From the sequence record PQ572755.1: a DNA stretch of 64,000 bases; one strand, 5' to 3'. The notes beneath the pieces are model-generated. The model worked only from the letters and a program-made list of their open reading frames with translations, ran no database searches and was not told where the DNA came from. Positions 2,904-14,341 of the stretch are shown here, piece by piece. A program made the translations under genes and the position numbers. This stretch comes from Escherichia phage CAU_ECP01. Position 1 is the stretch's first letter. Every line of letters starts with the position of its first letter.

Positions 2904-5159
2904 ATGCAAGTAACTAAGAGCAGTGGGGTATCCCAAAATTTTGATGCACAGAAAATTATTCAAGTATTAACTTGGCAATGTGAAGGAACACAAATTGACC
3001 CATATGAATTGTACGAAGAAATTAAGACCCATCTTGTCGACGGGATGAGCACCAAAGATATCCAGAAGATTTGTATTAAAGTTGCAGCTAACTCGATTTC
3101 TGTCGAAGAACCTGATTATCAGTATGTCGCCGCCAAAGGGCTAATGTTTGCACTTCGTAAAGATGTATATGGGCAGTTTGAACCGCCTGCTTTTATCGAC
3201 CATATTTCTTATTGTGTTAATGAAGGCAAATACGACCCTGAGCTGTTGTCTCAATATTCAGCAGAAGAAATCATTTATCTCGATTCACAGATTAAACATG
3301 AACGAGACTTTGACCTGACTTATGCTGGTGCTATGCAGCTTAAAGAAAAATATCTAGTTAAAGATAAAACAACTGGGAAGATTTATGAAACTCCACAGTT
3401 TGCTATCATGGCTATTGGCATGGCCTTACATCAAGACGAAACTCATGACCGTTTGAAACATATTATTCGTTTTTATGATGCCGTTTCTACTCATCAAGTT
3501 TCATTGCCAACCCCAATTATGGCAGGTGCTCGTACTCCAACTCGCCAGTTCTCTAGTTGTGTAGTTATTGAAGCCGGTGATTCGTTAAAATCTATTAACA
3601 AAACTTCAGCATCAATTATTGAATATATTTCTAAACGAGCTGGTATCGGTATCAACGTTGGTATGCTTCGTGCAGAAGGTTCTAAGATCGGTATGGGTGA
3701 AGTTCGACATACAGGTGTTATTCCATTCTGGAAACATTTCCAAACTGCAGTAAAATCTTGTTCTCAAGGTGGTATTCGTGGTGGTGCTGCTACAGCGTAT
3801 TATCCGATGTGGCACTTAGAAGTAGAGAACCTATTAGTTCTGAAAAATAACAAAGGCGTGGATGAAAACCGTATTAGACATATGGACTACGGAATTCAGA
3901 TTAATGACCTTATGATGGAACGCCTTGGTAAAAATGATTATATTACTTTATTTAGCCCTCACGAAATGTCAGGCGAACTATACTACTCGTTCTTTGAAGA
4001 TCAAGATAAATTCCGTGAGCTTTATGAGAAAGCTGAAAAAGACCCAACAATCAGAAAGAAAAGAATCAAAGCACTAGAACTCTTTGAATTGTTCATGACT
4101 GAACGCTCTGGTACTGCTCGAATTTATCCACAATTCGTTGATAACACGAACAACTACACTCCATTTATTCGTGAAAAAGCTCCAATTCGACAGAGTAACT
4201 TATGTTGTGAAATCGCTATTCCAACTAATGATGTGAATGGTCCTGATGCTGAAATTGGTTTATGTACGTTATCTGCTTTTGTATTAGATAAATTTGATTG
4301 GCAAGACCAAGATAAAATTAATGAACTGGCCGAAGTACAAGTACGTGCACTTGATAACTTGTTAGACTATCAAGATTATCCGGTTCCAGAAGCTTTAAAA
4401 GCTAAAAAGCGTCGAAATCTCGGTGTTGGTGTGACGAACTATGCCGCATGGTTAGCTTCTAACTTTGCTTCATATGAAGACGCTAACGATTTGACTCATG
4501 AATTGTTTGAGAGATTGCAATATGGCCTTATCAAAGCTTCAATCAAACTCGCCAAAGAAAAAGGACCTTGTGAGTATTATTCAGACACTAAATGGTCTAG
4601 AGGCGAATTACCTATCGACTGGTACAATAAAAAGATTGACCAAATCACAGCCCCGAACTACGTCTGTGACTGGGAAGAACTTCGAGCTGAACTCAAAGAA
4701 CATGGAATTCGTAACAGCACACTTAGTGCTCTCATGCCATGCGAATCAAGCAGTCAAGTCTCAAATAGCACAAACGGTATAGAGCCACCTCGTGGACCTG
4801 TAAGTATTAAAGAATCTAAAGAAGGCAACTTCCGACAGGTTGTTCCTAATATTGAACACAACATGGGTCTTTATGACTATGCGTGGAAACTCGCTAAGAA
4901 AGGTAATAAGCCTTATCTGACACAAGTTGTTATCATGTTAAAATGGGTGTGCCAATCTGCTTCTGCTAATACATACTACGACCCTTCAGTCTTTGAGAAA
5001 GGCAAAGTGCCAATGTCTGTAATGCTTGATGACTTGCTTTACTTCTGGTACTTTGGTGGTAAGAACCTTTACTATCATAACACTCGAGATGGTTCTGGTA
5101 CAGATGACTATGAGTTAGAAACGCCTAAAGCTGAAGATTGCTCCGCTTGTAAGCTTTAA
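2904..5159 (+). CDS. nrdA: aerobic ribonucleotide reductase large subunit
   Basis: 751 aa; class Ia RNR alpha with ATP-cone N-terminus and C-terminal CxxC tail (CSACKL); T4 NrdA-like. Confidence 0.95.
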   Translation: MQVTKSSGVSQNFDAQKIIQVLTWQCEGTQIDPYELYEEIKTHLVDGMSTKDIQKICIKVAANSISVEEPDYQYVAAKGLMFALRKDVYGQFEPPAFIDHISYCVNEGKYDPELLSQYSAEEIIYLDSQIKHERDFDLTYAGAMQLKEKYLVKDKTTGKIYETPQFAIMAIGMALHQDETHDRLKHIIRFYDAVSTHQVSLPTPIMAGARTPTRQFSSCVVIEAGDSLKSINKTSASIIEYISKRAGIGINVGMLRAEGSKIGMGEVRHTGVIPFWKHFQTAVKSCSQGGIRGGAATAYYPMWHLEVENLLVLKNNKGVDENRIRHMDYGIQINDLMMERLGKNDYITLFSPHEMSGELYYSFFEDQDKFRELYEKAEKDPTIRKKRIKALELFELFMTERSGTARIYPQFVDNTNNYTPFIREKAPIRQSNLCCEIAIPTNDVNGPDAEIGLCTLSAFVLDKFDWQDQDKINELAEVQVRALDNLLDYQDYPVPEALKAKKRRNLGVGVTNYAAWLASNFASYEDANDLTHELFERLQYGLIKASIKLAKEKGPCEYYSDTKWSRGELPIDWYNKKIDQITAPNYVCDWEELRAELKEHGIRNSTLSALMPCESSSQVSNSTNGIEPPRGPVSIKESKEGNFRQVVPNIEHNMGLYDYAWKLAKKGNKPYLTQVVIMLKWVCQSASANTYYDPSVFEKGKVPMSVMLDDLLYFWYFGGKNLYYHNTRDGSGTDDYELETPKAEDCSACKL

Positions 5160-5209: not shown

Positions 5210-6388
5210 ATGAGTACAGTTTTTAATACCCAAAAAGTTGATGTTTTGAATGAACCAATGTTCTTTGGTTCCGGTCTTGGCCTTGCGCGTTACGATATTC
5301 AACGCCATAAAGTTTTTGAAGAGCTTATTGAAAAGCAATTGTCGTTTTTTTGGCGCCCTGAAGAGGTAAACTTGATGTTGGACTCTGCGCAGTTCAATAA
5401 GCTTCCACAGTTCCAACAGAACATCTTTACGAACAACCTTAAGTATCAATCATTATTGGATTCTATCCAAGGCAGGGCACCATCTGCGGTACTTATGGCA
5501 TTGCTTTCCGACCCTTCATTAGATACATGGGTTGCTACATGGACATTCAGTGAAACCATTCACTCTCGTTCATATACTCATATCATGCGAAATCTTTATA
5601 CTGATCCATCGAAGGTATTTGATGAGATTGTATTAGATGAAGCAATTATGAAACGTGCGGAATCAATCGGCAAATATTATGATGATGTTCTAGTTAAAAC
5701 ACGTGAATGGGAAAATGCTAAAGAAATTTTTAAATGTTTTTCCGAAAATGAATATGATTTGGATGCATATTCAAATAGTCTTATGCATGTGGAAGAATGT
5801 AAACGTGCATTAATGAAATCTCTTTATCTCTGTTTACATGTTATCAACGCCTTAGAAGCTATTCGTTTTTACGTATCATTTGCATGTACTTTCAACTTCC
5901 ATAAGAACATGGAAATCATGGAAGGTAATGCAAAGATTATGAAGTTTATCGCTCGTGACGAACAACTCCACCTTAAAGGCACTCAGTACATTATTCGACA
6001 GCTCCAACTTGGTGTTGATGGGGATGAATGGGTTCAAATTGCTAAAGAGTGTGAGCAAGAAGCAGTAGATATCTTTATGGAAGTAAATAGTCAAGAGAAG
6101 GAATGGGCTGCACACCTCTTTAAAGATGGTACATGTCCAGGTATCAATACGCAGAGTATGTGTGCTTTTGTTGATTACTTGACTGTGTCTCGTATGAAAC
6201 AGTGCGGTTTGCCATGCCCAATCACTGATGCTCCGACCAAGCATCCGTATCCTTGGATTCGTGAATATCTGAACTCAGATTTAGTTCAAGCAGCTCCTCA
6301 GGAAGTTGAAATCAGTTCTTATCTTGTCGCACAAATTGATAATGATGTAGACCAAAATGTAATCAATTCATACAAAAAATATTTCTAA
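5210..6388 (+). CDS. nrdB: ribonucleotide reductase small subunit, uninterrupted (no intron)
   Basis: 392 aa; diiron/tyrosyl-radical R2 family; continuous ORF at T4-like length. Confidence 0.95.
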   Translation: MSTVFNTQKVDVLNEPMFFGSGLGLARYDIQRHKVFEELIEKQLSFFWRPEEVNLMLDSAQFNKLPQFQQNIFTNNLKYQSLLDSIQGRAPSAVLMALLSDPSLDTWVATWTFSETIHSRSYTHIMRNLYTDPSKVFDEIVLDEAIMKRAESIGKYYDDVLVKTREWENAKEIFKCFSENEYDLDAYSNSLMHVEECKRALMKSLYLCLHVINALEAIRFYVSFACTFNFHKNMEIMEGNAKIMKFIARDEQLHLKGTQYIIRQLQLGVDGDEWVQIAKECEQEAVDIFMEVNSQEKEWAAHLFKDGTCPGINTQSMCAFVDYLTVSRMKQCGLPCPITDAPTKHPYPWIREYLNSDLVQAAPQEVEISSYLVAQIDNDVDQNVINSYKKYF

Positions 6389-9770: not shown

Positions 9771-10857
<1,087 letters not shown>

Positions 10858-10858
<1 letters not shown>

Positions 10859-11049
10859 TGAAACGATTATATGAAGTGATTGAGGACATCGAACAGTATA
10901 AAGAATATTTGTTTGTAGCCTGGCCTTTAGTAAATGGACAGTTCGGTATTGATGTGCTGGACTATGAGCATGAAGAACGTTTGGACGGTGGTATATTTGA
11001 TAACGTCGACCAGGCAATTGAATGGTTAAATGAAAACTATGTACGATAA
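10858..11049 (+). CDS. hypothetical acidic protein
   Basis: 63-aa ORF overlapping pseT stop. Confidence 0.4.
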
Positions 11050-11254
11050 ACATCATGAAATCGAAGATGAAGCATACAAAATGCTTCGTAAACTAGTGGG
11101 ACTTAATATGAGTCCTACATTAATCAACAAACTCGCAGGAATTCGTAATGATCTGAATACTCGTTACAAAGGCGAATATCATGTAGAGTTTGTTCCTGTA
11201 GGTGAACCGACCGAGCGATTTGTTGTTCGAGTTAAAGTAAATACTGTACACTGA
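11030..11254 (+). CDS. hypothetical protein
   Basis: 74-aa ORF; start uncertain (11030 or 11039). Confidence 0.4.
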   Translation: MKTMYDKHHEIEDEAYKMLRKLVGLNMSPTLINKLAGIRNDLNTRYKGEYHVEFVPVGEPTERFVVRVKVNTVH

Positions 11255-11261
11255 GGTAATT

Positions 11262-11537
11262 ATGTTCCCAACTTATTCTGAAATTGTAAAGGTAGTCTTC
11301 AGTCAGATTATTGCTAATAATATGTTTGAAGTGCTTGATAATGCAGCCGAACTCAGAGTTCATGCTCAACTAACTCATGTACTCAATGCTTTACTCCCAG
11401 ACCAAGTAGATTCTATTGCTATTACTCTTCTCCCTGGGTCTGCACACGTCATAGTGGTATTTGATCTTGACGGCGATTTAGTTATCCAATGTGATATCAA
11501 TTTCGGTACACAAAAAATTGAATGCAAAGCAATTTAA
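11262..11537 (+). CDS. hypothetical protein
   Basis: 91-aa ORF. Confidence 0.4.
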   Translation: MFPTYSEIVKVVFSQIIANNMFEVLDNAAELRVHAQLTHVLNALLPDQVDSIAITLLPGSAHVIVVFDLDGDLVIQCDINFGTQKIECKAI

Positions 11538-11539
11538 CG

Positions 11540-11569
11540 GTTTACAACATGGTGGAGTTGTGATACTAT
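11540..11569 (+). promoter_or_regulatory. T4-type early promoter
   Basis: GTTTAC 11540-11545, 18-bp spacer, TACTAT 11564-11569; near-perfect inverted repeat GGTGGAGTT/AACTCTACC. Confidence 0.6.
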
Positions 11570-11598
11570 AACTCTACCAACACAATGAGGAAATCGAA

Positions 11599-11835
11599 AT
11601 GCTAAGTGAAACCCCAATTACAGTACACGAATTTCAGATTAAAGTAAAAGAATTTGCTCAAGCACTCATCAATAAAGTGTCTGAACGTTTCCAGGATGCA
11701 ACATTACGAGTTATTCAAGAATCTCCACGTTCTTTTCTCATAATCGTTAATCCTAAAGATGGTGACCAGATTACTAGCCTTAAATTAGGCAGTGATGGTC
11801 TTGTTGAAGCAACTCGAGTATATGGAACACTATAA
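11599..11835 (+). CDS. hypothetical protein
   Basis: 78-aa ORF with GAGGAAA SD. Confidence 0.45.
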   Translation: MLSETPITVHEFQIKVKEFAQALINKVSERFQDATLRVIQESPRSFLIIVNPKDGDQITSLKLGSDGLVEATRVYGTL

Positions 11836-11955
11836 TGAGAGCTATCTCATTACTATCGAGAATGGTCATAAATCTGAGCACTACCAACTTAGCCTGTCTA
11901 ATCCGGTTAAAGGTATTGTTGAATCAGAATCTGTTTATATCTCCTAAGGATTGTT

Positions 11956-12948
11956 ATGTTACCTGTCGTCGGAAAACTTATTTCTCCAAAAGAACTGGCT
12001 GAGATTATTCCTTTGTCGGAAGCTTACGCATCACAAGTGGCTTCTCATCGCGAACAAGTTAATTCGATTATGAACGGTGAAGACCCACGCAAACTTATTG
12101 TTGTAGGTCCTTGTTCAATTCATGACCCTATTGCTGCTGTTGAATACGGCAAACGTCTGGCTGAACTTCAAACTCGTCTTCCTAATGTTCTGTTAGTGAT
12201 GCGCGTTTATTTTGAAAAGCCTCGAACTACCGTAGGTTGGAAAGGTCTTGTAAATGATCCATATCTTGACGGAAGTTTTGATATGAACCACGGTCTTATA
12301 GTTGCACGAACATTGTGTCGTAAACTTCTACGTATGGGACTTCCATTAGCAACTGAAGTATTAGACCCATTCACGATTAAGTATCTTTCTGGTATTTTCT
12401 CATGGGTTGCTATTGGCGCCCGTACGACTGAAAGTCAGACACATCGTGAAATTGCTTCAGGTCTACCGATGTGCGTAGGCTTCAAGAACGCAACCAATGG
12501 TTCTATTAAAGTAGCTACAGACGCGATGTATAGTGCCGCCTGGCCTCATCGGTATATGGGTATGGACGTCGATGGTACTGTAGGCATTGTTGAAGCTGAA
12601 GGTAATCAGAATACGCATATCGTATTGCGTGGCGGGACCAACGGCCCGAACTATCATTCTTCTGATATTCAAGAAGCTTCTAACAAAGCAAGGGCAGTAG
12701 GTCTGAATCATTATGTAATGGTTGACTGTAGCCATGCAAACGCTGATGGGCATTATAGCAATCAAATTGGTATTGGTAAAAATTTAGCAGCTAATGATTT
12801 GGTCAAAGGAATTATGATAGAATCGTTCCTACATGAAGGAAATCAAAAAATTTCTGATAATATGTCCTATGGCGTTTCCGTTACCGATGCGTGCATCAGT
12901 TGGGAACAAACTAAAGAGCTGTTAACTTATATTAATAAGGTTCAATAA
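11956..12948 (+). CDS. 3-deoxy-D-arabino-heptulosonate 7-phosphate (DAHP) synthase homolog, class I alpha (AroG/AroF/AroH type)
   Basis: 330 aa; GPCSIHD, RVYFEKPRTTVGWKGLVNDP, GARTTESQTHRE, DCSHAN, ESFLHEGNQ, TDACISWE align with E. coli AroG; AAGGA SD; stop overlaps cd start (TAATG). Confidence 0.85.
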   Translation: MLPVVGKLISPKELAEIIPLSEAYASQVASHREQVNSIMNGEDPRKLIVVGPCSIHDPIAAVEYGKRLAELQTRLPNVLLVMRVYFEKPRTTVGWKGLVNDPYLDGSFDMNHGLIVARTLCRKLLRMGLPLATEVLDPFTIKYLSGIFSWVAIGARTTESQTHREIASGLPMCVGFKNATNGSIKVATDAMYSAAWPHRYMGMDVDGTVGIVEAEGNQNTHIVLRGGTNGPNYHSSDIQEASNKARAVGLNHYVMVDCSHANADGHYSNQIGIGKNLAANDLVKGIMIESFLHEGNQKISDNMSYGVSVTDACISWEQTKELLTYINKVQ

Positions 12949-13529
12949 TGAAAGCTAGCACATACCTTCAGATTGCATATCTGATTTCTCAAGAATCAAA
13001 ATGTTGTTCATGGAAAGTTGGTGCCGTCATTGAAAAAGATGGACGCATTATCTCTACTGGATATAACGGTTCACCTGCAGGTGGCGTTAACTGTTGCGAA
13101 CATGCATCTGAAAATGGTTGGTTGAAGAATAAACCAATCCCAGTCATCGTTGCTGGACATAAAGAAGGCACTACAGCATTTGGACGGGTAGATAATTTTG
13201 TTTTAGCCAAAGAACATCGAGCTGCTCATAGTGCATGGTCTGCTAATAATGAAATCCATGCAGAATTGAATGCAATTTTGTTTGCCGCTCGTAAAGGTAA
13301 TTCTATTGAAGGTGCTACGTTATATACTACGCTTTCTCCGTGTCCTGATTGCACTAAAGCTATTACGCAGTCAGGTATTAAAAAGGTTGTATACGCAGAA
13401 TTATACGACCGATCTCCTGAAAATTGGGCAGATATTCTAAAACAAGCTGGTATTGAAGTAATTCAGTACTCTCGTAATAATCTTCGTTCTCTGAATTGGG
13501 AACAAATCCGAAACTTTTGTGGTGAATAA
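12948..13529 (+). CDS. cd: dCMP deaminase
   Basis: 193 aa as in T4 Cd; zinc motifs CCEH...HAELNA and PCPDC. Confidence 0.95.
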   Translation: MKASTYLQIAYLISQESKCCSWKVGAVIEKDGRIISTGYNGSPAGGVNCCEHASENGWLKNKPIPVIVAGHKEGTTAFGRVDNFVLAKEHRAAHSAWSANNEIHAELNAILFAARKGNSIEGATLYTTLSPCPDCTKAITQSGIKKVVYAELYDRSPENWADILKQAGIEVIQYSRNNLRSLNWEQIRNFCGE

Positions 13530-13530
13530 T

Positions 13531-13827
13531 ATGATTTTAACTGAACAAGAAACTATGGTTCTTCGTGAACGTATTAAAACTATTCTGTCTGTAGGCGTTC
13601 ATTGTGTTGTATTTGAAAAGGCTAACGGTGATGTACGCACTATGTTTGCTTCGCGCGATGAACTTGAAGTCAAATATGTCAATAACAATCCAGCAACAGA
13701 AGTTCGTTATGAACCTCGTGAATCAGTTCGAGCATTCGATACCAAGTTAGGTCAGTGGCGTTCTTTCCGCCTTGATAAAGTAATTTCGGTTGATGGTACT
13801 CCGGTCGAACGTTTGCTTCTTATGTAA
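13531..13827 (+). CDS. hypothetical protein
   Basis: 98-aa ORF from ATG 13531; the track ORF starts at an upstream GTG inside cd. Confidence 0.5.
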   Translation: MILTEQETMVLRERIKTILSVGVHCVVFEKANGDVRTMFASRDELEVKYVNNNPATEVRYEPRESVRAFDTKLGQWRSFRLDKVISVDGTPVERLLLM

Positions 13828-13829
13828 TA

Positions 13830-13856
13830 TGCTTTACGAATAGTATGGTATTATTA
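13830..13856 (+). promoter_or_regulatory. MotA-dependent middle promoter for gene 31
   Basis: MotA box TGCTTTA 13830-13836; -10 TATTAT about 13 bp downstream. Confidence 0.55.
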
Positions 13857-13884
13857 ATCTATCGTCAAACAACAAGGAAATAAG

Positions 13885-14217
13885 ATGTCTGAAGTACAAC
13901 TCCCAATTCGTGCTGTTGGTGAATATGTCATTCTGGTTTCTGAACCCGCTCAAGCAGGTGATGAAGAAGTTACCGAATCAGGACTTGTGATTGGTAAACG
14001 TGTTCAAGGTGAAGTTCCTGAACTATGTGTAGTTCATTCTGTAGGTCCTGATGTTCCTGAAGGTTTTGTTGAAGTTGGTGATTTGACTCCACTACCAGTT
14101 GGACAAATTCGAAATGTTCCACATCCATTTGTGGCTTTGGGACTTAAACAACCTAAAGAAATTAAACAGAAATTCGTAACATGCCACTATAAAGCTATTC
14201 CGTGTCTTTATAAGTGA
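13885..14217 (+). CDS. 31: head-assembly co-chaperonin (GroES analogue) gp31
   Basis: 110 aa, nearly identical to T4 gp31 ([34 protein letters not shown]...). Confidence 0.95.
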
Positions 14218-14225
14218 TATAAATA
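14218..14225 (+). promoter_or_regulatory. late-promoter-like TATAAATA box
   Basis: Exact TATAAATA just after gene 31 stop; followed by hairpin GAAGAG-aaca-CTCTTC (14233-14248). Confidence 0.3.
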
Positions 14226-14341
14226 ACTATATGAAGAGAACACTCTTCTAAGCGGTAGCCTACAACTGAGAGACTTGTCGAAAGAAGGTGAAATTCAGAC
14301 GAACGTGGCTACTAAATATTATCTCGAATTGAGAATTTAAA

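Follow-up and report, generated by a model that had tools for sequence, protein, structure and literature searches.

The window analysed here is a stretch of 64,000 nucleotides from Escherichia phage CAU_ECP01 (sequence record PQ572755.1). The gene under study is an open reading frame (ORF) at positions 11956-12948 of its + strand, which starts with ATG, ends with a TAA stop codon at 12946-12948 and specifies a protein of 330 residues. [quoted passage not shown] By sequence, it is of AroF ancestry and belongs to a phage clade in which the pocket for the feedback inhibitor is rebuilt on an unchanged catalytic core. We favour, with rather better than even confidence, the view that the gene would provide an active, feedback-insensitive, AroF-derived DAHP synthase made early in infection, and that it serves as a non-essential auxiliary metabolic gene. 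Over this region the window, itself a Mosigvirus, shares 99.8% identity with Escherichia phage phiEC1 and 98-99% with many phages of that genus (Straboviridae, Tevenvirinae).

The phage protein is a DAHP synthase with a complete active site

The initial annotation, made from the sequence alone, had proposed a full-length class Iα DAHP synthase in which all phosphoenolpyruvate (PEP)-binding and metal-binding residues are present. Profile searches bore out the family assignment. The protein matched PF00793 (DAHP_synth_1) with an E value of 5e-75 (252 bits against a cut-off of 25.5), the NCBIfam equivalog model TIGR00034 aroFGH with 428 bits (cut-off 173) and the NCBIfam subfamily model NF009395 with 455 bits (cut-off 343). 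Scores were below the cut-off for the AroG-specific model (363 versus 568 bits) and likewise for the AroH-specific model (386 versus 463 bits). The closest solved structure by sequence was E. coli AroF (6agm, E 5e-105), and identity to the E. coli proteins was 51% for AroF, 47% for AroG and 43% for AroH. An AlphaFold2 model built on a 40-sequence alignment (predicted local distance difference test score 92.5, predicted template-modelling score 0.92) superimposed on solved Iα DAHP synthases from N. meningitidis and E. coli with a template-modelling (TM) score of 0.95 and a root-mean-square deviation of 1.6-1.9 Å. The model has the TIM-barrel fold, the β6a/β6b hairpin of Iα enzymes is present in it at residues 198-203 and 209-214, and the N-terminal helices are kept, the first 8-9 residues being gone.

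Active-site residues were located by aligning the window protein and 11 phage homologs with the aroG, aroF and aroH products of strain MG1655, and the claim that all of them are present held in this alignment. The metal ligands C53, H260, E289 and D311 correspond to AroG C61, H268, E302 and D326; they are invariant in all 12 aligned phage-clade sequences and in 122 of the 122 members of a larger alignment. The PEP ligands R83, K88, A155, R156, K177 and R225 are equivalent to AroG R92, K97, A164, R165, K186 and R234. The KPRTT motif, which serves erythrose-4-phosphate (E4P) binding, is whole (K88-T92), and all other E4P-contacting residues are kept. Both the PEP ligands and KPRTT are preserved throughout the 12 phage sequences, one of which deviates at V93, just after the motif. 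The window protein contains each of the motifs GPCSIHD, KPRTT, DCSHAN, ESFLHEGNQ and TDACISWE. Judged by these residues, the phage protein should catalyse the conversion of PEP and E4P to DAHP.

DAHP synthases are homologous to 3-deoxy-D-manno-octulosonate 8-phosphate (KDO8P) synthases, and the phage enzyme could in principle have changed its substrate and make another, KDO8P-like 3-deoxy-ulosonate, tied for example to the sugar modification of Mosigvirus DNA. This DNA carries arabinosyl-hydroxymethylcytosine, a modification reportedly described in RB69. We consider such a change very improbable. KPRTT and all E4P and PEP contacts are of the DAHP synthase type, the best structural matches are DAHP synthases, and RB69 is without the gene. 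The NCBIfam profile search returned no KDO8P synthase model for the window protein. Since every profile, sequence and structure match is to a DAHP synthase, membership in the KDO8P synthase family or in another aldolase subfamily was rejected.

The inhibitor pocket is remodelled throughout the phage clade

An N-terminus shorter than that of AroG had also been noted, together with the suggestion that the enzyme may be deregulated. The truncation is real. The catalytic Cys is preceded by 52 residues in the window protein versus 60 in AroG and 61 in AroF, which makes the N-terminus 8-9 residues shorter than in these enzymes. The same count is 48-52 in all 24 phage-clade proteins examined, versus 58-95 in 98 cellular homologs. 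The missing stretch corresponds to AroF 2-10 or AroG 2-9 and takes in AroG D6 and D7 and AroF N8. In AroG and AroF, N-terminal residues of the neighbouring subunit help to close the inhibitor site, and Jossek et al. (2001) and Zhang et al. (2014) are said to have obtained feedback resistance through changes in the N-terminal region.

We scored as clade-specific any position at which the 24 phage-clade proteins and the 98 cellular homologs are each at least 90% fixed, for different residues. Only seven such positions exist in the whole protein: AroG 150, 151, 155, 156, 180, 209 and 223. The cellular residue and its counterpart in the phage clade are P and I at position 150 (I141 in the window protein), Q and K at 151 (K142), D and G at 155 (G146), L and I at 156 (I147), S and P at 180 (P171), F and Y at 209 (Y200) and T and A at 223 (A214). 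Each of four new residues, I141, K142, G146 and P171 (the equivalents of AroF P151, Q152, D156 and S181), is shared by at least 23 of the 24 phage-clade proteins; Ile, Lys and Pro at AroG 150, 151 and 180 were found in every sampled member of the clade, with one exception each at 150 and 151. When the seven positions were compared with a pocket set of 14 inhibitor-site or feedback-resistance positions compiled from PMC9529685, five fell within the set (hypergeometric p = 1.3e-6) and the remaining two adjoined positions belonging to it.

The roles of several of these residues have been described (PMC9529685). The AroG variants P150L and S180F are feedback resistant, as are F209A, F209S and V221A, and Q151 is involved in inhibition by Phe. 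The main chain of the inhibitor is contacted by Q151/Q152 and S180/S181 in 1KFL and 6AGM, and a salt bridge made by D155 stabilises the inhibitor site. The AroF-type pocket, made up of Q152, S181 and P151 with the salt bridge of D156 and a lid of N-terminal residues, is not intact in the window protein. The pocket substitutions at feedback-resistance positions and the missing N-terminal residues together suggest that the enzyme is probably deregulated or regulated differently, loss of feedback by Tyr, Phe and Trp being the most economical reading. The earlier suggestion of deregulation thus gains strength from the replacement of AroG P150, Q151 and S180 by Ile, Lys and Pro across the phage clade.

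The diversity of cellular pockets was sampled over 150 diverse representatives of 50%-identity clusters, with no separate phage representative among them. The canonical combination P-Q-D-L-S-F-T was the commonest pattern (49 of 150 exact), and the phage combination I-K-G-I-P-Y-A was found in none of the 150.

These data bear directly on the possibility that the gene is an ordinary Tyr-sensitive aroF copy which adds to or replaces DAHP synthase capacity once host expression stops, its regulation being unchanged. AroF is indeed the closest characterised relative of the protein, and the sister clade is that of AroF (see below); moreover, AroF-type Gly is found at AroG position 211 (G202), the inhibitor-site β-hairpin is present in the model and D137 and P138 are kept. 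Unchanged regulation is nonetheless difficult to reconcile with the replacement of the backbone-binding AroF residues Q152 and S181 by Lys and Pro, of AroG P150 by Ile and of the D155 salt-bridge residue by Gly, and with the absence of AroF 2-10. The changes are clade-wide, and AroG substituted at these positions is feedback resistant (PMC9529685). We regard a Tyr-sensitive copy as distinctly unlikely. In four GenBank records (OL960576, KP869101, KP869104 and MG589383) the product is called "Tyr-sensitive", a name transferred from E. coli AroF; the pocket residues speak against this label.

Several points weigh against our preferred reading of an active, feedback-insensitive enzyme made early. 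Single changes of the phage type do occur in cellular lineages whose regulation is not established (S180P in 22 and F209Y in 19 of the 150 representatives), and D146 and P148 (AroF numbering) are kept in the phage enzyme. The new residues I141, K142, G146, I147, P171, Y200 and A214 are near-invariant over about 45% sequence divergence. A disabled site should drift, so the rebuilt site may have another role, such as locking the active state, packing at the subunit interface or binding a new effector. As to the remainder of the reading, it is consensus matches only that point to early expression (see below), and the searchable full-text literature, with subscription journals lying mostly outside it, yielded neither biochemical nor genetic work on a phage DAHP synthase.

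The near-invariance of the new residues lends some appeal to the idea that the pocket became a regulatory site for another ligand, for example a phage nucleotide or folate metabolite, in which case the enzyme would be re-regulated rather than deregulated. All seven residues persist from Mosigvirus to Bragavirus though identity falls to 55-58%, and their combination is absent from the 150 cellular representatives. On the other hand, the sequence suggests no ligand, the conservation could equally reflect packing of the subunit interface or locking of the active conformation, and a pocket that has lost its N-terminal lid would be expected to be more open and to bind more weakly. We think such a new site unlikely. 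Loss of feedback remains our preferred interpretation of the pocket.

A DAHP synthase acquired separately is found in an unrelated lytic phage, Aeromonas phage HJ05 (79 kb), at locus 3899-5062, where it is annotated as hypothetical. It is 38% identical to the window protein, has 79 residues before the catalytic Cys and shows a non-canonical pocket that includes Pro at AroG 180. The resemblance is suggestive, and the HJ05 pocket may have converged with that of the T4-like phage clade.

The phage enzymes are sister to AroF and under purifying selection

The closest proteins fall into two groups. Those of the phage type are 319-343 residues long and share between 55% and 98% identity with the window protein; the cellular ones are 341-388 residues long, none being above about 55%. 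In a neighbour-joining tree of 122 sequences with 25 bootstrap replicates, the 25 phage-type sequences were monophyletic in 25 of 25 replicates. Their sister was a 42-sequence clade comprising E. coli AroF and the AroF proteins of Klebsiella, Dickeya and Cronobacter, which places the window protein with AroF, not with AroG or AroH. The monophyly and the identity of the sister clade fit a single old capture of an AroF-type gene as the source of the phage DAHP synthases. Matches to aroF under the name "Acinetobacter phage MD-2021a" were considered as independent phage captures and rejected. In contigs CAKLQH020000056.1 and CAKLQH020000043.1, aroF lies beside clpA, cobS, fadH and bioH; the contigs look like bacterial chromosomal DNA filed under a phage name, hence their aroF copies are not phage genes.

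Between genera, the ratio of non-synonymous to synonymous substitution rates (dN/dS) lies at 0.17-0.23, dS being near saturation. Comparison with phage SA79RD revealed five synonymous differences and not one that is non-synonymous. Purifying selection acts on the DAHP synthase gene. That it might be a functionless passenger decaying after horizontal transfer is an idea prompted by its dispensability, 11 Mosigvirus records and T4 being without it. Such decay is contradicted by conservation: the frame is intact in 212 records, dN/dS is about 0.2, the catalytic residues are invariant over at least five genera, and the syntenic position is kept. We find this explanation scarcely credible.

The gene lies on a dispensable cassette at the cd.2/cd junction

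The DAHP synthase gene is followed by cd (12948-13529, + strand), which encodes a dCMP deaminase of 193 residues (PF00383, E 1.6e-26) and is so named in annotated relatives. It is preceded by a cd.2 homolog of the RB69/T4 type (11599-11835, + strand; 78 residues; DUF7320, PF24005, E 7e-36), whose product is 99% identical to Cd.2 of RB69 and 64% identical to that of T4. In RB69, the type Mosigvirus, the gene is absent and cd.2 abuts cd (RB69 locus ~6237-6255). Comparison with RB69 by blastn gave 97.5% identity over 10800-11850 and 97.2% over 12945-14296, and the RB69 junction is exactly the left flank of the window joined to its right flank.

In Mosigvirus the gene sits within 1.1 kb of extra DNA, a cassette with one copy of an imperfect direct repeat of 13 nt (ATAATGA[G/A]AGCTA) at either end. 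As seen in the junction alignment and the blastn comparison with RB69, the left copy (ATAATGAGAGCTA, 11832-11844, + strand) reproduces the junction between the cd.2 stop and the cd start, and is followed by a degenerate version of the opening ~20 nt of cd. The right copy (ATAATGAAAGCTA, 12945-12957, + strand) forms the junction between the DAHP synthase stop and the cd start. A distance of 1,113 bp separates the two copies, and it is the cd.2-stop/cd-start junction itself that is repeated. A 50-residue ORF at 11795-11947 (+ strand) corresponds to the remnant 3′ part of a second, foreign-type cd.2. It matches DUF7320 positions 43-76 (E 1.3e-6) and is 50-55% identical to the C-terminal part of Kanagawavirus and Marfavirus Cd.2; no match to the window's own Cd.2 was found. 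Annotated as a hypothetical coding sequence in phage Mizar, this ORF has the look of a scar left by recombination and brought in as part of the cassette.

The cassette, whose presence at the cd.2/cd junction is polymorphic, is found in about 139 records. The uninterrupted cd.2/cd junction was found in 11 records: RB69 (2), ECO111 5-P, mar005P1 (5), JK42, moha and JK36. Since the cassette is exactly absent from RB69 and a few relatives, the gene, common as it is, is dispensable and non-essential. The simplest history would be that a segment made of the 3′ half of cd.2, the DAHP synthase gene and the start of cd, coming from another T4-like phage, recombined into an RB69-like junction. On this view, the RB69-like phages either never received the cassette or lost it again via the short repeat. 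In RB69, cd is annotated as encoding 169 residues (locus 5743-6252) versus 193 in the window and in T4; the blastn match begins at the cd start of the window (12945 onward), so the RB69 start may be mis-called.

Gene neighbourhood and expression

The gene had been described as inserted beside cd, in a slot that T4 fills with small cd.x ORFs. T4 has indeed the same gene order, with cd.1 (112 residues) directly upstream of cd and no DAHP synthase. Insertion is an apt description at the level of the genus, given the 1.1-kb cassette seen against RB69. It does not extend further, as at least four more genera have this position filled: the interval from pseT to cd holds a DAHP synthase gene in Marfavirus PWKp18, Winklervirus X20, Bragavirus PM2 and Kanagawavirus Entb_45 and PEi26. 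DAHP synthase at this position is an old module circulating among T4-like phages. In other genera 2 nt, one ORF or two ORFs lie between the gene and cd; two small ORFs intervene in Bragavirus PM2. The neighbourhood is conserved and the direct abutment to cd is not. In Serratia phage X20 (Winklervirus), the intervening ORF (locus 3498-3839) is a homolog of T4 cd.1 (30% identity, E 2e-10). The DAHP synthase gene and cd.1 thus coexist in some genera, and the Mosigvirus arrangement has lost cd.1.

In the window, the stop codon of the DAHP synthase gene and the ATG of cd overlap by one base (the last A of TAA, position 12948). The overlap, TAATG, had been read as translational coupling to cd. The overlap is real; a specific functional link was rejected. 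In phage SA79RD, a tally from the annotation gives 17 overlapping gene pairs in 27 kb. Stop/start overlaps being so frequent in an annotated relative, this one carries no specific meaning; moreover, no such overlap exists in other genera, where the spacing is loose. A Shine-Dalgarno-like TAAGGA can be read directly at 11945-11950 (+ strand), ending 5 nt 5′ of the DAHP synthase ATG, and phage Mizar has a ribosome-binding site annotated in the corresponding position.

A T4-type early promoter-like site (GTTTACA...TGATACTAT) is found upstream of cd.2, at 11541-11569 on the + strand, with 9 of 12 positions matching and a TG extension. In phage SA79RD the corresponding site bears the annotation of a T4 early-promoter match, and in T4 itself early promoter Pe133295 lies between cd.3 and cd.2. 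Promoter-like matches as such are not above chance in the region (7 found in the consensus scan versus 9.2 expected from shuffled sequence), and of the sites returned by the promoter and terminator scan only the one coinciding with an annotated T4-type early promoter was retained. No terminator-like site was found on the + strand between 11541 and cd. The 11541 site is likely to be the start of an early transcript covering cd.2, the DAHP synthase gene and cd. A strong sigma-70-like match (10 of 12 positions, TG) lies antisense within the DAHP synthase gene, at 12752-12780 on the - strand; it is probably due to chance.

The proposal that the gene belongs to the same early block as frd, td and nrdAB proved correct as to the strand only. 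The genes frd (1116-1703), td (1700-2560), nrdA (2904-5159) and nrdB (5210-6388) are all on the + strand, 5.6-10.8 kb upstream of the DAHP synthase gene; according to the SA79RD annotation, several promoters and terminators intervene, so that these are separate transcription units several kb away. Between nrdB and pseT lie, in order, denA, rnlA, alc and the pseT.x genes. After pseT (9959-10858) come cd.4, an RB69ORF227-like ORF, cd.3 and the promoter-like site at 11541; the order from 11599 onward is cd.2, the DAHP synthase gene, cd, 31.1, gene 31 and rIII. The gp31.1 homolog encoded 3′ of cd (13519-13827, + strand; 102 residues) matches the WYL_2 Sm-like SH3 barrel (PF10902, E 2e-8). In several relatives 31.1 is labelled "tail fibers protein", which looks like a propagated misannotation.

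A model for the role of the phage enzyme

The following scenario would account for these results. An ancestor of the enterobacterial T4-like phages would have captured an AroF-type bacterial gene once. Its descendants in the phages would have lost the N-terminal stretch closing the inhibitor pocket and exchanged the residues that hold the inhibitor backbone, leaving an enzyme that is most likely insensitive to Tyr, Phe and Trp. The synthase would probably be made early, together with the cd product, from the T4-type early promoter, and would convert PEP and E4P to DAHP and inorganic phosphate. Carbon could then keep entering the shikimate pathway of the host whatever the size of the aromatic amino acid pools, also after the shut-off of host gene expression. 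Catalytic activity, insensitivity to feedback, early expression and a benefit to the phage are thus the predictions of the model.

How the phage might profit allows for more than one answer. The initial annotation had thought of folate and p-aminobenzoate supply. By pathway logic this is one possible downstream use of the product, and is not favoured over aromatic amino acids, quinones or an E4P/PEP sink; the fact that RB69 and about five other Mosigvirus phages do without the gene is a point set against it. If the benefit came instead from substrate consumption, irreversible use of E4P and PEP would pull transketolase toward pentose phosphates for nucleotides, or would lower PEP. Pathway logic allows this, the region is rich in nucleotide metabolism genes (cd, frd, td, nrdAB), and the sink would need a feedback-free enzyme such as the pocket changes predict. 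Yet the early regions of T4-like phages mix unrelated functions and adjacency to cd is loose elsewhere, and we consider the sink improbable. Unlikely, too, is the broader proposition that the former Tyr pocket (I-K-G-I-P-Y-A) was repurposed, so as to keep the enzyme switched on or to detect a metabolite relevant to the phage, its value lying in carbon rerouting (an E4P/PEP sink or chorismate for folate) and not in aromatic amino acids.

Loss of feedback in the active, early-made synthase, if true, would mean that the inlet to the shikimate pathway is opened deliberately by lytic phages of enterobacteria, and would provide metabolic engineering with a natural, stable, feedback-resistant DAHP synthase. 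Natural Mosigvirus pairs with and without the cassette (the window phage versus RB69, moha and JK42, with flanks about 97% identical) make a fitness or metabolomic test straightforward. General concepts are unchanged by the finding; its interest rests on the rewired feedback site and on these natural pairs.

Distribution and comparison with known systems

That similar ORFs might already be annotated in relatives turned out to be amply true. A tblastn search gave homologs in 212 phage records, with an identity of at least 95% in 139, and most of the 212 are annotated as DAHP synthase, phospho-2-dehydro-3-deoxyheptonate aldolase, aroF or AroG. Proteins 100% identical to the window protein are found in several sequenced phages. 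The genome papers of Kanagawavirus KLB31 (PMC11845039) and of phiC120 (PMC8022965) give DAHP synthase as a predicted function only. Being annotated in well over a hundred phage genomes, the gene was already known, as an auxiliary metabolic gene of common coliphages, many candidates for phage therapy among them. What the present analysis adds is the phylogeny and selection, the pocket remodelling and the cassette structure.

The window protein matches PHROG 5045 end to end (606 bits; category "moron, auxiliary metabolic gene and host takeover"). This family comprises proteins from Mosigvirus, Kanagawavirus, Marfavirus, Winklervirus, Bragavirus and others; the window protein is a member and its gene occupies the same position between pseT and cd. 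With E. coli AroF (6AGM) the phage protein shares the fold, the metal ligands, the PEP and E4P residues and the AroF-type specificity Gly, the 51% identity extending over 329 residues. It differs from AroF by the lack of residues 2-10, by the change of P151, Q152, D156 and S181 to Ile, Lys, Gly and Pro, and by internal deletions of 5 and 3 residues and a one-residue insertion, for a total length of 330 versus 356 residues. A third comparison is with feedback-resistant laboratory DAHP synthases (AroG P150L, S180F, Q151 variants and D146N, and N-terminally engineered AroG and AroF). Like these, the phage enzyme is changed at positions 150, 151 and 180 and altered at the N-terminus, which is short. 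The laboratory enzymes carry single mutations, whereas the phage enzyme has a natural, fixed set of seven changes, from which its feedback-resistant phenotype is predicted.

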